From a virus (lineage: Duplodnaviria > Caudoviricetes), in IMG/VR virus record IMGVR_UViG_3300006802_000116, positions 1-55,998 of that record: a stretch of DNA of 55,998 bases; one strand, written 5' to 3'. The translations under genes and the position numbers were made by a program. Of the stretch, positions 3,800-44,043 are shown piece after piece. The number at the start of each line of letters is the position of its first letter. The stretch's first letter is position 1. The notes under the pieces are model-generated. The model searched no databases. It was given only the letters and a program-made list of their open reading frames with translations, and was not told the origin of the DNA.

Positions 3800-4141
3800 G
3801 TAGGGCTCCAGCAGCGCGAGCCATTGCTGGGCACTCCAACAGCGGCCACTGCGGCGATTCAGGGTGCGAGTGGGTGAGCTGATGCCCAGCCGGAGCCCGG
3901 CGGCTTCATGAGGCAGGATGGCGCCGAACGCCAACAGCTCGCTGCGCCGTAGCTGCAGCTCAGCGGCTCCAGCGGGAGGTGTCACAGGGGTAGCGGAAGC
4001 GGCCGCCATGGCTGTAGCGGATGTGGAAGGGGATGGCATTGTCGCGGCAGGTAGTGATGATGTCGCGCAGTGTCTGCCCGTCGCGCAGTTCGAAGCTGGC
4101 GTCGGCGATGGGGTGATCGGGGTAGTGGATTTGCATGGCAA

Positions 4142-4342
4142 TCAGGAGTCAGCGAGCAGTTGCTCGACTTCGTGGCGCAACCAGTCGGCGGTTTCACCGG
4201 GATCGAGGTCGAGGCCCTGAGCGCCGCGCTGTTCGATGTGATCGGCGATCAGGGAGAGGATGGCCGCCAGCTGGTCCGTACTGGGAGCTCGATAGGAGAG
4301 CTGCGGCTGGAGGGCTAGCTCCCGCCAGAGGGGGCTGGTCAT
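4142..4342 (-). CDS. Hypothetical protein
   Basis: 66 aa, ATGA-coupled to the upstream gene. Confidence 0.6.
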   Translation of the reverse strand: MTSPLWRELALQPQLSYRAPSTDQLAAILSLIADHIEQRGAQGLDLDPGETADWLRHEVEQLLADS

Positions 4343-4539
4343 GGGCTGCCCTCCAGCTCAGTCGCGACAACAATGGCGCTACGGCGCTCGGAACCGCAAC
4401 TCGGGCAGAAGTTGAAACGATGGCGGGTGCCCTTCAGGTGGGGCATTCGATACGTGCCTTCTGTATCTACGAACCAGTTCGCAGAATCTGCCCAGCTTTC
4501 CCAGGCTTCGCAGCAGGGAGGTGTAGTTTGCTCAGTCAT
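4339..4539 (-). CDS. Small Cys-containing (FNFCPSCG) zinc-ribbon-like protein
   Basis: CC and CPxCG motifs; ends ...ATELEGSP. Confidence 0.6.
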   Translation of the reverse strand: MTEQTTPPCCEAWESWADSANWFVDTEGTYRMPHLKGTRHRFNFCPSCGSERRSAIVVATELEGSP

Positions 4540-4714
4540 TAGAGCCCTCCAGCTCGGCGGCGATGGCTTGAATCTCTTCTAGGTCTTGATTAAACTTGAC
4601 ATAATGTCCGCAGTTGTCGCAATGAAGATCACCAAAGATGGCGTCATTTAGATCAAGGGCTTTGTAGTGACCTTTGCCGCATCGGACGCATGTTGCGCCT
4701 GTATTGTTAGTCAT
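4532..4714 (-). CDS. Small zinc-ribbon protein (CxxC...CxxC)
   Basis: Likely start MTNNTGATCVRCGKG at 4714; HCDNCG; ends IAAELEGSND. Confidence 0.6.
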   Translation of the reverse strand: MTNNTGATCVRCGKGHYKALDLNDAIFGDLHCDNCGHYVKFNQDLEEIQAIAAELEGSND

Positions 4715-5189
4715 TGGCACCCTCCAGCTCGGCGGCGATGGCGAGGAGCGCAGCACGGATAGAGGGCACTGGCTCGCTTGGCCAGATCTTGGATCCTCCA
4801 GGTGTTGTCTCGTATTCCGGCACCACCTGATCCGCAGCAGCACGCAGGGCGGCGGCGATGCTGGGGCAATCACGCAAGTCAGGCACAGCACGGAACGCAT
4901 CCAGCACCGCCTGGGCGGACTTGGTCAGCGTTTCTTCCGCCAAGCTCAGTGGCTTAGGACGCATGATTTGCCTCAGTGCATCACCAGAGGGCGAAACAAT
5001 GAGCTCGTGAGTATACAAAGCGTTTGAGTCCAGCCACTTAGCGTCTTGTTTAAGCTGCTGATCAGCTCCCCAGCGGGCTGCTTGGGTGGCGATGTAACCA
5101 GCGATGCCAAGCTCGTCATCTTCTGGGCTGTCCTCCAGCCACTGCTGCACCAGCTCCGGTGGTGGGGTGATCGGGCGGTTAGTTGTCAT
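4707..5189 (-). CDS. Hypothetical phage protein
   Basis: 160 aa, ITPPPELVQQW...AARWGADQ pattern; ends IAAELEGAND. Confidence 0.65.
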   Translation of the reverse strand: MTTNRPITPPPELVQQWLEDSPEDDELGIAGYIATQAARWGADQQLKQDAKWLDSNALYTHELIVSPSGDALRQIMRPKPLSLAEETLTKSAQAVLDAFRAVPDLRDCPSIAAALRAAADQVVPEYETTPGGSKIWPSEPVPSIRAALLAIAAELEGAND

Positions 5190-39825: not shown

Positions 39826-40416
39826 CTAGCGACGGCGTGATGGCAGCACATAAAGCGATGGCGTTCGGTGCGGCGGCAAGTACGGGCGCAGCCAATTCTT
39901 CACTTTGGACGTCTCTTCGATCGGGAATGAGATTGTTGATGCCGGTCCCTCGACTTCTCGGTTGTCGATCGGAATCCCCTGCGCCTCAAGCCAGCGGCAT
40001 ACGACATCGCGGTCATCTTTAAGACGGCGATGCTCGATGTGCAGCCCCTTGCTCCGCTCGCAGCCACCCTGGGTCCATAGGGCGGCGACTAGGTGGCGAG
40101 CGCCAATCTCCATGGCCTCCGCGCTCAGGTGGCGGCAGTCGCGTGGGTAGAGCAGCTCATACACCCGGTAAAGCTCTGGACTATGAAAGCGCAGGCGATG
40201 AACGTCGTAGAAGCTCTCCCCAGGCACGATGTCATACACCAGATCCAAAGGGCCGTCATGCGCTGAACGAAGCCGCCGACCGATGTAGCGCAGATAGGTT
40301 CGATCGCGCTCGCAGAGGCGAATCTCAAGCCATGGCCGCTTCTTCGCGCCCTTCAGTGCAAGCGTCCCGTAAACGGCGCTGTAGCTCAGTGCGAGCGCTA
40401 CGAAATGCGCTGACAT
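39826..40416 (-). CDS. Degenerate free-standing LAGLIDADG-like protein
   Basis: RFHSPELYRVYELLYP...HLS.E.ME...AALWTQGG resembles the I-SceI-type fold; acidic catalytic residues absent. Confidence 0.55.
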   Translation of the reverse strand: MSAHFVALALSYSAVYGTLALKGAKKRPWLEIRLCERDRTYLRYIGRRLRSAHDGPLDLVYDIVPGESFYDVHRLRFHSPELYRVYELLYPRDCRHLSAEAMEIGARHLVAALWTQGGCERSKGLHIEHRRLKDDRDVVCRWLEAQGIPIDNREVEGPASTISFPIEETSKVKNWLRPYLPPHRTPSLYVLPSRRR

Positions 40417-41017
40417 CCCAGATGCCCTCTTGGAATAGGTGCTGACGAGTGATCGGTGCGTACGGTTTCAGGGCCTGGCGGATCTTGCTGCATTGCTCAG
40501 CAGGGAACGCCAGCCTTGGCCGCACAAGGGCCAAGCTGACCTCGGATCGAGCCCCGGTCAGCATCACTAGCCAGTCGCGTACTAACTCGGCCTCCTGCTG
40601 ACTGCCCCCGACCCGGGCGAGTTGTGCGCTGCCGTCTTTGCTCAGCCGAGCCCCCTCCGACCAGAGCCACGCCGCCGCCTGCGCCCCCAGCATCTCAAGC
40701 GCGGTCGACGTGATAGACCGCTGCCGGCCCGGGTAGAGCAGGTTGTAGATCGGGAACAACTTGGCCGATGACACCCGAAAGCGCAGCGCCAGGGTGCGCT
40801 TGCCGTTGTCCCGCAACGTGCACCCGTAGGGGACAATTTCCGCCTTGGTCGGCAGGAATTGGCGGAATTCGGCGACCTTCTCCTCCAGGAACGCCGACTC
40901 CGAGACCCCCGCTGTCAGCGTCAACTGGACAAAACCGCCGCCTGGACTGCGATATGGGACGAGGTTGCCATCAGCAAGGAGCAGGCCAAGCAGTCCGCGG
41001 ACGTCTGCTGGGTCCAA
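40325..41017 (-). CDS. Free-standing LAGLIDADG homing endonuclease-like protein
   Basis: GLLGLLLADGNL first motif; FRVSSAKLFPIYNLLYP...ITSTALEML...AAWLWSEG second motif. Confidence 0.72.
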   Translation of the reverse strand: MDPADVRGLLGLLLADGNLVPYRSPGGGFVQLTLTAGVSESAFLEEKVAEFRQFLPTKAEIVPYGCTLRDNGKRTLALRFRVSSAKLFPIYNLLYPGRQRSITSTALEMLGAQAAAWLWSEGARLSKDGSAQLARVGGSQQEAELVRDWLVMLTGARSEVSLALVRPRLAFPAEQCSKIRQALKPYAPITRQHLFQEGIWDVSAFRSARTELQRRLRDACTEGREEAAMA

Positions 41018-41110
41018 ATTTGTACCCTATAAAACTGCACTATAGTAAGGCGCAGAGGGCAGCTCGCCTGCTCTCTCGCTCGCCTTACCCTCTTCGGAGC
41101 ATTTGATCCC

Positions 41111-44027
41111 ATGTGGATTGACAATGACTTCCCGAAGCTGTTAGGTGCCGAGCTGTACCGGCCTCACCCGAGTTATATCGTGGAGATGGCTGTTGAGCCT
41201 GTCGTAGTACACGACTTTGCAAAACAGCCGGGGCAGACTGTACAGCTTGACCGTTAATTGACTGGTTAGCGGTCATTAAATCCCGTGAATTCAGGGAACC
41301 CCTCCTAAGCTTTAATCGGCAGTAGCCGAGAACCTCGACAAGGAAAGCCGGAATATCGGCAGCATCTTTTATGCATCTCGGCTCTGCCTGGATGTTGGGG
41401 AATCCTGAGCCAAGCCGCCTGGGAACAGGTGGAAGGTGCAACGACTAGGTCATGGAGTCCAGGACGGACGGTAAAGACCCACGAGCGCGGGACGGTCGCA
41501 CGGCCGAAGAGATAGTCTGACCTGCATCAATGGAAAAGATGCAGAACCATCGGATAAAGAGCCGATGGGGTAACAATGTGTACCGCTTCTGGGGAGCACC
41601 GGGCACCAAGGACAGCCGTGAACGCACGGCTGATCAAACCCTTGGCACCGCCTCTTCTCGCAGTATTGTCAAGGACAAGGTTCTTGTATCCCTTAAGGAA
41701 TACACGGGCCCCGCAGATCCTACCGATACTGCTGCACCGAGCACTTTCAAGATTGCTCGCGAAACCCTGCTTACCGCCCAGCGTCTTCTGCTGGATACCG
41801 GTAACCTGAACGTCTTCCATCAATCGATTGGAAGTCTAACTCTGCTTGATGACTCGGCCGAAAGGCTAGTGGTCGCCTAGGCGGAAACGCTTAGGGCAAT
41901 ACGGGGTGAATTGCTGGGAGCCCTTTCCGATCATGCCAGCGATCGGAGGAGGGTCAGGAGCTACAACGCAGCCCGGAAGGGCAATCGTGAACGCCTGAAA
42001 ATCCTGATACCGCATGGGTTATCAGCAGCCAAGCCAGACCACAATCTGGAAGGTTCAACGACTAGGTCCCGAGAGGCAACTCGGTAACGGACCCACGAGC
42101 GCCCCGCACCTGTACCTTGTTAACTGAAGAAGATTCTGTACTTTCGTTCAAGACGAAAGACCCCCTCCGTCGTGCCTTCGTAAAGAATGCGAGCCAAGGC
42201 AATGGCGTTGTCTGCATACCAACGCAAGACGTAGGTATTGCGGTCGCGACCCAGGGACGTTGCTCGCGGGAGGACTGAATCAGCCCACGCTTTGCAGCCG
42301 AGAGCGAAATGCTCACTGGCTGTAGTGATCTGGGCTGCCAATGCTCCACACGAGCGCCGCCCCACGGAACCGTCGCCATCGAAGACCCCCCTGACGTAGT
42401 GACTGACAAACTCACTCGGCAGATCCGGCCACTCGAGGGTTCGAGACTTCCGGGGCGTGACACCATGCCGGATCAAGTCTGCTGCCATTGCTGGACTAGT
42501 GAATTTCACCTGCAGCATCGGCGACCCTTTTCGGGTTCGCAGAGGCACGCCAGGGAAGCCCACGCATTCGGCATATTGCTCTAGAGCTTGGCGATCTCGC
42601 TCGTGGAGGGCAAAGCCGACTCCTCGAGGTACGTTGTTCTCGGTCACGATCCAGCCATCGGCGGATAGGAAGCCGAGCCAGTACACCTTCTGGGGCGCGT
42701 CAAGCTCCCCGAAGAAGTCCTCGTGGACCTCGCGGCGGTAACTCACGGCTCGACGGGCTCCGGGCTTTCGCTCATACGCATCGTCGTACTTGCGGCGTCC
42801 GTGTTTCTGAGCGAAAGATCGCACACCGGCCGCCTTCCGATGGTGGGTAGCAGCAGTCCGGGACAGCCCGTACAGCTCTCCAATCTCCTTATCGGAGAGC
42901 ACGTCGGTCAAGCCGTCAAGCGCCTCGCGCGAAAGGGCATTTAGAGGGATCTTCAACAAGACAAGAATGGTGAAGATATAGTCTAACCTTGCTCGATGAC
43001 AAAGAGCAAGCGTGCGGATAAAGAGCCGCGCGGCCCTTTGGGGCACTGGTGACCGTCGCTGGCGCGACCGTGTATTCGCCGATGAGCTGTTCAAAGCTGA
43101 AGCCAATGGCGCAGCTGACAGCACCAAGGGTGGTTACTACTACCCGCTGAAAAAGGCAAAGGCCGCTTCTGCGCCTTTCCTGACCTACGCAGCCGGTGAA
43201 TCTGCCAAGTTTGATGTCAAGACCGACCTCCTCGAGGTGGTCAAGGACATGCGGAAGCGTAACGTGCCTGGAACATGGGCCTGTACGGCGTGAGTCGTAC
43301 AGCAAACAGGGTGAATTGCTGGAACCCCTCCACTACACGGGGAATCAGCAGCCAAGCCAGACCACAATCTGGAAGGTTCAACGACTAGGTCCCGAGAGGT
43401 AACTCAGTAATGGACCCACGAGTGCCCTGCTACTCCATCGAGTAGATGAGATAGTCTGACCTCGCAGGATGGCAAACTGCGAGAACCGAGGGATAAAGAA
43501 CCCTCGGGGTAACAAAAGTGACGTTCGCTGACGGCTACTACCGCTGCATCGCGGATCCTACCGCGATGATGCACCTGCGCCAGAACGATGCGTTCCGTGA
43601 GATCGCTCGTTACGCTGGCAACGGCATGGTGAACCCCATGCAGCCCGAGTTGGCTCCTAACGCCAACTTCTTCCGTGGCATGGGTCCCGCCTATGGCCAG
43701 GCCGGCTTTGTTGCTGGTCAGCCCGTGATGCCGTCTGGCTTTTTATTTGAGGGCGTCCGCTGGTTCGAGAGCACCAACCTGCCCGAGAAGAGCCTGCAGG
43801 TGACCATCACCGACGCGTCGATCACCTCGACCGTCACCACTGCTGCTCCGATGCTGTTCTTCGGTCCTCAGGCCGTGGGCGTGGGCATCGGCGGCAACAA
43901 CGCTCAGATCCTGCTGAACAACAACGACGATTTCAGTCGTTTCATCATCATGATCTGGTCGCTTTTCGCCGGTTTCGAGATCCTGAACAAGGACTTCGTG
44001 ACCGTCGCTTACTCCTTCGTTTACTGA
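41111..44027 (+). CDS. Major capsid protein, 4 exons: 41111-41254, 41581-41854, 43052-43269, 43521-44027 (380 aa spliced)
   Basis: Exons total 1143 nt in one frame: MWIDNDFPKLLG...QPGQTVQLDR|YRFW...LLDD(Y)RRWRDRVF...KRNVP|TFADGYY...FEGVRWFESTN...AYSFVY. Confidence 0.88.
41255..41580 (+). ncRNA. Group I intron 1 in the capsid gene (no ORF)
   Basis: Exon ends in U, P1 gaccgU/Gcggtc wobble, P4 gaattcagg/cctgag, R acgactag, S aagagatagtc, terminal G. Confidence 0.9.
41855..43051 (+). mobile_element. Group I intron 2 in the capsid gene, carrying a homing endonuclease gene
   Basis: P1 gacU/Ggtc, P aattgctg, Q atcagcag, R acgactag, S aagatatagtc, terminal G at 43051. Confidence 0.9.
42120..42959 (-). 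CDS. Intron-encoded double-motif LAGLIDADG endonuclease, antisense to the intron
   Basis: YWLGFLSADG and YVRGVFDGDGSV motifs; N-terminal HTH-like SDKEIGELYGLS; probable TTG start at 42959 or 42956. Confidence 0.85.
   Translation of the reverse strand: MLKIPLNALSREALDGLTDVLSDKEIGELYGLSRTAATHHRKAAGVRSFAQKHGRRKYDDAYERKPGARRAVSYRREVHEDFFGELDAPQKVYWLGFLSADGWIVTENNVPRGVGFALHERDRQALEQYAECVGFPGVPLRTRKGSPMLQVKFTSPAMAADLIRHGVTPRKSRTLEWPDLPSEFVSHYVRGVFDGDGSVGRRSCGALAAQITTASEHFALGCKAWADSVLPRATSLGRDRNTYVLRWYADNAIALARILYEGTTEGVFRLERKYRIFFS
43270..43520 (+). ncRNA. Group I intron 3 in the capsid gene (no ORF)
   Basis: P1 gccU/Gggc, P aattgctg, Q aatcagcag, R acgactag, S gagatagtc, terminal G at 43520. Confidence 0.9.
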
Positions 44028-44043
44028 TAGGAGGTAACGAATC

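Follow-up and report, generated by a model that had tools for sequence, protein, structure and literature searches.

How could an endonuclease gene that faces backward inside an intron of a phage capsid gene function, and on what DNA would it act? The question is raised by an IMG/VR virus record (IMGVR_UViG_3300006802_000116), the whole of which, 55,998 bases rated about 65% complete, was analysed here and is called the window. An earlier note on this DNA had described an open reading frame (ORF) for a LAGLIDADG endonuclease on the strand opposite to the major capsid gene, enclosed by the P8 arms of the second capsid intron (intron 2). We regard it as probable, at roughly 80%, that intron 2 is a mobile group I intron which carries a working, backward homing endonuclease gene in P8 and spreads into intronless capsid alleles. 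Judged by its sequence, the window comes from an uncultured freshwater cyanophage that is kin to Synechococcus phage S-EIVl. The capsid region is 77% identical to S-EIVl DNA over the exons. In S-EIVl (L001) the capsid gene is one unbroken ORF of 383 amino acids (3851-5002), and no group I intron was found in that phage (no Rfam match at E<=0.01). The S-EIVl capsid was used as the ruler for exon ends, and numbers preceded by "q" refer to its residues.

Structure of intron 2 and of the split capsid gene

The major capsid gene of the window is on the plus strand. When it was located by tblastn with the S-EIVl capsid, it was found in four exons split by three group I introns. Intron 2 (41855..43051, plus strand) is 1197 nucleotides (nt) long, and its core is split at P8 by the ORF. 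The left half of the intron (41858-42125) matched positions 1-176 of the Rfam model RF00028 with 36.8 bits (E 4.6e-8), the match being cut at its 3' end. The right half (42950-43010) matched positions 182-253 with 18.0 bits (E 0.009), and this match was cut at its 5' end. Both half-matches are on the plus strand and the break between them is P8. The sequence and the covariance model alignment placed the 5' arm of P8 (cacc tgta ccttgt) at 42107..42120 and the 3' arm (acaag aat ggtg) at 42961..42972, both on the plus strand. The ORF, which is on the minus strand in the ORF list, lies between the arms, and T42120 is common to the 5' arm and to the stop codon of the ORF. A single Rfam search across intron 2 closed P8 falsely inside the ORF (41858-42243, 38.2 bits) and did not bridge the insert; therefore the two half-searches were relied on. 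The minimum-energy fold of the ORF-deleted intron paired CACC with the 3' terminal GGTG and not with the P8 arm, and such a fold is uninformative for a ribozyme with tertiary structure.

Intron 2 begins after U41854 and its last base is G43051. The exons joined at gatgact/accgtcgc (the slash marks the junction) read LLDD-Y-RRW, as in the intact S-EIVl capsid. A possible P1 pairing between GACU and GGUC, located 20 nt downstream, can be read from the sequence. With its core on the host strand, these splice-site bases and the restored frame, intron 2 is a group I intron as judged from sequence, and it is predicted to splice. The location of the P8 arms, the opposite strand of the ORF and the intronless junction named in the earlier note were all confirmed, as was its statement that the intron RNA cannot serve as message for a gene on the other strand. 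Since the ORF is backward in the intron, a separate minus-strand RNA is required; this follows from logic and is not an observation.

Like intron 2, the other two introns start after U and end in G, and removal of all three restores the S-EIVl reading. Exon 1 (41111..41254; all exons and introns are on the plus strand) corresponds to S-EIVl residues 1-48 with 83% identity in tblastn, and exon 2 (41581..41854, 80% identity) to residues 49-139 plus the first base of the codon for Y140. Exon 3 (43052..43269) was delimited by tblastn and the sequence, exon 4 (43521..44027) by tblastn and the ORF list. Introns 1 (41255..41580) and 3 (43270..43520) contain no ORF. Each of them matched RF00028 on the plus strand with 56.8 bits (at 41245-41544 and 43260-43483, respectively), above the gathering score of 50. 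The ends of intron 1 were taken from tblastn, those of intron 3 from the sequence.

In the GenBank record of S-EIVl (L001 3776-5002) a minus-strand coding sequence and a short plus-strand coding sequence are annotated over the open capsid frame of 383 amino acids. S-EIVl-like capsid genes are split or wrongly extended by gene callers, which matters for annotation.

The endonuclease and selection on its gene

The homing endonuclease gene (42120..42959, minus strand) was assigned from the ORF itself, Pfam, PHROGs, the alignment, AlphaFold and Foldseek. It ends with TAA at 42120-42122 and has 279 or 278 codons, depending on whether it begins at the TTG codon at 42959 or at that at 42956. Before these codons the minus-strand frame remains open as far back as a TTG at 43127, which is antisense to exon 3. 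Pfam LAGLIDADG_3 matched residues 184-223 (E 1.9e-6 to 3e-6, 28.5 bits against a cut-off of 22.5), and PHROGs gave the endonuclease family phrog_4645 (E 3.8e-36). Two LAGLIDADG motifs were recognized on the minus strand: YWLGFLSADGW at 42651..42683, containing the catalytic D101, and RGVFDGDGSV at 42363..42392, containing the catalytic D196. Both aspartates are invariant in the aligned sequences (15 of 15).

The AlphaFold model, whose mean predicted local distance difference test score (pLDDT) is 85.3, begins with a small helical domain, after which come a linker of poor prediction quality and the two LAGLIDADG domains, both alpha/beta. The order of the secondary structure elements fits two alpha-beta-beta-alpha-beta-beta-alpha domains, that is, a pseudo-dimer. 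The N-terminal domain (residues ~8-55, 42795..42938, minus strand) resembles a helix-turn-helix (HTH), with predicted helices at residues 11-18, 23-29, 34-43 and 49-53 in a block of pLDDT ~90. HTH families are precomputed for the relatives P0024, P0028 and P0030, and a weak HTH_23 match (E 0.0089) was found on the relative encoded by contig L094. A Foldseek search against the PDB yielded 114 matches at E<=0.001, with I-Tsp061I (E 5e-8), the TliVMA intein endonuclease, the bI3 maturase, I-AniI and I-OnuI at the top. When sequence alone was compared, the link to solved structures was weak (I-Tsp061I, E 0.001). Judged from sequence and model, the protein is a single-chain, two-domain LAGLIDADG homing endonuclease with an HTH domain, and it is predicted to have cleavage activity.

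The earlier note had called the protein an intein-like double-motif LAGLIDADG. The two motifs, the LAGLIDADG_3 match and the fold matches to the endonuclease domains of the TliVMA, PI-SceI and PI-PfuI inteins agree with this description, but an intein splicing (Hint) domain is absent: Pfam searches with the 15 aligned proteins gave only LAGLIDADG-type families and one chance-level Talin_R4 match in one member. Identity as an intein was therefore rejected; moreover, the ORF is antisense to the capsid gene and ends at its own stop codon. The same note had implied that LAGLIDADG enzymes are rare in phage introns. This was overstated, since relatives of the protein are present in 146 phage records, some of them in sense inside annotated introns, and an antisense case in a capsid intron is described in the text of an earlier report (PMC3706429). 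Three database gene calls, P0005, P0009 and P0016, open with LALCHRARLDYIFT, which is the antisense translation of the ribozyme core from P9 to J8/7. By sequence these calls extend too far; they also show that the genes lie backward in an intron, as in the window.

Selection on the gene was assessed by comparison with two other contigs, L007 and L006, whose ORFs are 74-76% identical to the window ORF and reside in the same intron. The alignment of the three DNA sequences shows near identity in the ribozyme parts and divergence in the ORF. The pairwise ratios of non-synonymous to synonymous substitution rates (dN/dS) were 0.075, 0.055 and 0.108. Pairs that include the window differ at 149-159 third codon positions, as compared to 33-60 first and second positions. 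There is no stop in the ORF frame over 279 codons in the three alleles; the other five frames contain 4-14. A hand count over the N-terminal 18 codons of L007 and L006 gave 8 synonymous and 2 non-synonymous changes, indicating that this stretch is translated. As judged by these sequence comparisons, the ORF is a functional gene under purifying selection.

Allele states and recurrence of the backward layout

Alleles of the intron 2 site were found by scanning viral and metagenome collections for exon-intron junction patterns. Distinct contigs were counted after merging duplicates (L007 with L091, L178 and L182; L006 with L013, L097 and L176; L098 with L177; L093 with L179). L181, which has the exon-intron pattern and neither a capsid nor an endonuclease match, was excluded from the counts. 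The intron with the antisense ORF was present in five distinct contigs (the window, L007, L006, L098 and L180). In L098 the ORF is only 45% identical to that of the window, yet the intron is at the same site and has the same 5' start. RF00028 matches bridging the opposite-strand ORF at this site were obtained in L006 (49.3 bits) and L098 (47.3 bits). One contig, L093, has an intron without the ORF at the same capsid position (Rfam 41.7 bits). Its P8 is a 29-nt hairpin, and its first bases and P5 extension are the same as those of intron 2 of the window. The outer stem of P8 is CGCC/GGCG in L093 and CACC/GGTG in the window, a change on both sides. Intronless junctions were read in 78 cases, the closest of which is identical to the exon flanks of the window at 29 of 30 positions, and for 66 of the 80 best capsid loci the tblastn match ran unbroken over nearly the whole query. 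The sequences of these alleles identify the ORF as an optional passenger of P8.

Introns were found at at least eight capsid sites across related contigs and most relatives are intronless; the S-EIVl-like capsid gene is an intron hot spot. In other contigs of the phage group, capsid introns are located at q48/49, q107/108, q132/133, q138, q211-216, q282/283 and ~q290. In L092 and L094, P8 of the q282/283 intron is filled by antisense ORFs of the HTH-LAGLIDADG_3 type (27-32% identical). These ORFs start with ATG, which in L094 is preceded by an in-frame stop two codons upstream. The ~q290 intron of L093 contains an antisense ORF of the same architecture, with GGAGGG six bases before its TTG. 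The same backward layout was found in an unrelated major head protein gene (L124). Whole-model RF00028 matches span opposite-strand LAGLIDADG_3 ORFs in L092 (50.7 bits), L094 (49.3 bits) and L124 (50.7 bits). All four antisense sites of the protein family are in major capsid genes (three of the S-EIVl type and that of L124), in a sample that is small and non-random.

Some further observations were made at these loci. In L124 (953-3496, minus strand) three group I introns lie in or near the major head protein gene, one of them with the antisense LAGLIDADG_3 ORF. A sense LAGLIDADG_2 ORF in the q48/49 intron is intact (243 amino acids) in two contigs and split into ORFs of 102 and 160 amino acids in a third (L090, L095, L096); a homing cycle in its decay phase would be expected to show such a split form. 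The window also has, on the minus strand shortly before the capsid gene begins, a pair of paralogous LAGLIDADG-like ORFs that overlap each other (39826-40416 and 40325-41017) and are 28% identical. Neither is inside an intron, one matches Pfam LAGLIDADG_2, and L007 has the pair as well. Their possible role is that of free-standing endonucleases directed against the adjacent capsid gene. Downstream of the capsid gene, between two genes, sub-threshold matches to suhB/mmgR small RNAs (29-33 bits against a gathering score of 41) were noted in L006 (1464-1553) and L007 (1457-1557); in the equivalent region of the window no match reached the gathering score.

Expression, mobility and rival explanations

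In the explanation that we favour, intron 2 would be read on the plus strand within the capsid message and most likely self-splices, restoring LLDD-Y-RRW. The endonuclease would be made from a separate minus-strand transcript. It most likely cuts capsid alleles that lack the intron, near GATGACT/ACCGTCGC, in relatives infecting the same cell, and repair of the break would copy the intron together with the gene into the cut alleles. The backward orientation would make the nuclease independent of the capsid gene, which is transcribed and translated late and very heavily, and would bar ribosomes from the ribozyme.

A candidate promoter for the minus-strand RNA was sought by a consensus scan. A promoter-like site, TTGTCA-18-TATCTT (43002..42973, minus strand, 9 of 12 matches), is antisense to the P9 loop and J8/7, and RNA starting from it would begin just 5-10 bases ahead of the TTG codons. 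The site is retained in four ORF-bearing alleles. By chance, 1.1 sites would be expected in the 3.2 kb scanned; the scan gave 3. Comparison of ORF-bearing with ORF-less introns by the consensus scan revealed no promoter specific to the former, and reading the q282/283 introns by eye revealed no convincing -10 box. The earlier note had matched the orientation of the ORF to a putative early arm. The left arm of the window consists mostly of minus-strand ORFs, one of them Mu Gam-like, and the minus-strand block nearest to intron 2 also has a head-protein homologue.

RNA evidence was taken from public RNA-library contigs of 4 runs in 3 studies, which carry no strand information. These contigs do not cover 41936-42143. 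One contig of 552 nt (run X15), spanning the 5' leader, exon 1 and intron 1, closes on itself, with 41579 joined to 41058; this may be an assembly effect.

Several observations weigh against the favoured explanation. The sole promoter-like site is ribozyme-conserved sequence, and its TTGTCA -35 element is also present in the ORF-less intron of L093. No Shine-Dalgarno sequence was found before the TTG codons at 42959/42956, and L007 and L006 have CTG at the codon where most relatives begin, so that no canonical start is conserved. The RNA contigs that fall inside the ORF (X17, 42590-42830, identical over 241 bases, and X18, 42789-42939) are strandless and of low depth, and may derive from pre-mRNA or from DNA. 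RNA-library contigs contain exon joints at all three introns, but these belong to relatives that differ from the window at ~5-6% of the aligned bases and may be intronless alleles, and the joined forms are therefore no proof of splicing. As to orientation, sense-strand LAGLIDADG_2 genes are present in the capsid introns at q48/49 (L090, L096) and q107/108 (L094), indicating that the capsid gene does not force a backward orientation. The wider relatives of the protein are mostly in sense. A rough motif scan of 79 wider-relative loci, in which only loci with a recognisable core motif were classified, found three antisense cases and at least 12 in which the intron core closely follows the ORF on the same strand. 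Both flanking exons were identified for three of the sense relatives (in DNA polymerase, tape-measure and peptidase genes), and another two are located shortly after a terminase exon.

The allele states bear on a different explanation, in which the endonuclease gene is an independent mobile element that targets P8 of ORF-less introns, the intron being its landing pad and not its vehicle. In line with such an element, L093 has this intron without the ORF at the identical site, related ORFs occupy P8 of related introns at three capsid sites, and the strongly diverged ORF of L098 lies in an intron that has kept its site and 5' start. However, intronless alleles far outnumber the ORF-less intron (78 junctions against one contig), which fits classical intron homing, and we consider this explanation possible but unlikely. 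The two targets, intronless junction and ORF-less P8, are not mutually exclusive. It is also conceivable that homing has been lost and the locus co-opted, with the protein serving as a maturase for the capsid introns or as an HTH DNA-binding regulator, or with an antisense RNA tuning capsid splicing or timing. The fold matches to the bI3 maturase, to the bifunctional I-AniI and, at rank 45, to the regulator WhiA are consistent with such a role, as is the extra N-terminal HTH-like domain, and purifying selection is compatible with any protein function, a co-opted one included. LAGLIDADG maturases and WhiA commonly lack the catalytic aspartates, whereas D101 and D196 are invariant here. An insertion that some alleles have and others lack, and that has spread to several sites, bears the marks of an active mobile element, and the chance that homing has been given up appears slim.

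That the ORF is an unexpressed relic would agree with the failure to demonstrate a transcript, a promoter or a conserved canonical start codon. It is contradicted by the low dN/dS ratios (0.055-0.108), the absence of stops from 279 codons in three alleles and the prevalence of synonymous changes in the N-terminal codons of L007 and L006. An assembly error as the source of the orientation is contradicted by the same arrangement in five distinct contigs, and by five public DNA runs that contain 53-98% of the sampled words of 41100-44030. Both a relic and an assembly error are scarcely credible.

The mobile intron with a backward endonuclease gene remains the explanation that we prefer. A more elaborate form of it, which we hold to be rather improbable, sees the backward placement as a selected timing device for endonucleases residing in the most heavily expressed late gene. 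Here the minus-strand promoter would be built from the antisense of the conserved P9 loop and J8/7 of the ribozyme (TTGTCA ... GACTATATCTT), and would fire early, while co-infecting genomes could still be cut and repaired. Late transcription of the capsid gene would then collide with that of the endonuclease gene, double-stranded RNA would form and the nuclease would be silenced. Conversely, the antisense RNA could delay splicing of the capsid message.

Comparison with known systems places the locus among several partial parallels. Two phage proteins that are 28-30% identical to the window protein are encoded inside split phage genes: gp36 of Bacillus phage 0305phi8-36, in an intron of the DNA polymerase III alpha gene, and JENST_137 of Brevibacillus phage Jenst, between pieces of a DNA polymerase I gene. 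They are annotated as mobile intron protein and as intein-containing protein or endonuclease. Both are on the same strand as the gene they split, whereas the window ORF is on the opposite strand. Phage S-PM2 has a psbA group I intron together with a homing endonuclease, F-CphI, and an antisense RNA, CfrI. It shares with the window a cyanophage background and the combination, at one locus, of a group I intron, a homing endonuclease and antisense transcription, the last of which is predicted here. Unlike the window ORF, F-CphI is free-standing: its gene is on the sense strand and not inside the intron. The antisense RNA of S-PM2 is non-coding.

Among eukaryotes, the gene for I-DirII of Didymium iridis is, according to the text of PMC3073962, antisense in a nuclear ribosomal DNA group I intron and has its own promoter, independent of the host gene. 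The locus described here is similar in that the endonuclease gene is antisense to the host transcript of the intron (PMC3073962, PMC9548176). As far as these texts describe them, the nuclear cases differ in that they involve a His-Cys box enzyme, an RNA polymerase II promoter, a spliceosomal intron, a poly(A) tail and a ribosomal RNA host gene, as compared to a LAGLIDADG enzyme in a phage protein gene.

The closest parallel is mycobacteriophage LittleE. The text of Pope et al. (2013, PLoS One 8:e69273, PMC3706429) describes an intron, probably group I, in its major capsid gene, with a LAGLIDADG-type frame, gp14, on the bottom strand; splicing of that intron was demonstrated by reverse transcription PCR and N-terminal protein sequencing. 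At both loci a phage major capsid gene is interrupted by a group I-type intron that has a 5' splice site after U, a G as last base and an antisense endonuclease ORF wholly inside it. They differ in the enzyme and in the host: on that account gp14 is an I-CreI-like protein of 177 amino acids in a phage of an actinobacterial host, whereas the protein described here has 278 amino acids, an HTH and two LAGLIDADG motifs, and belongs to a cyanophage. Beyond what is reported for LittleE, sequence comparison documents three introns in the capsid gene described here, alleles of the intron 2 site that lack the ORF or the whole intron, and two more capsid sites with antisense ORFs.

With LittleE as precedent the layout is not new in kind, as far as that report describes it; the locus adds a well-documented case, this time in a cyanophage, and its enzyme is different and larger. 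A full-text literature search (supplements aside) found no account of introns in the capsid genes of S-EIVl-like cyanophages, nor of endonuclease genes that lie antisense within introns of cyanophages. In the published texts covered, the layout is treated in a single remark on one mycobacteriophage, to which the present series adds three allele states and a design repeated at three capsid sites.

The enzyme is an uncharacterised HTH plus LAGLIDADG nuclease with a defined candidate target. It raises the questions whether the exon junction or the ORF-less intron is the target, how a gene is expressed from the opposite strand inside a ribozyme, and whether the orientation protects capsid production. 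The natural series of intronless allele, intron alone and intron with backward gene provides ready substrates for these questions of cleavage target, expression and orientation.

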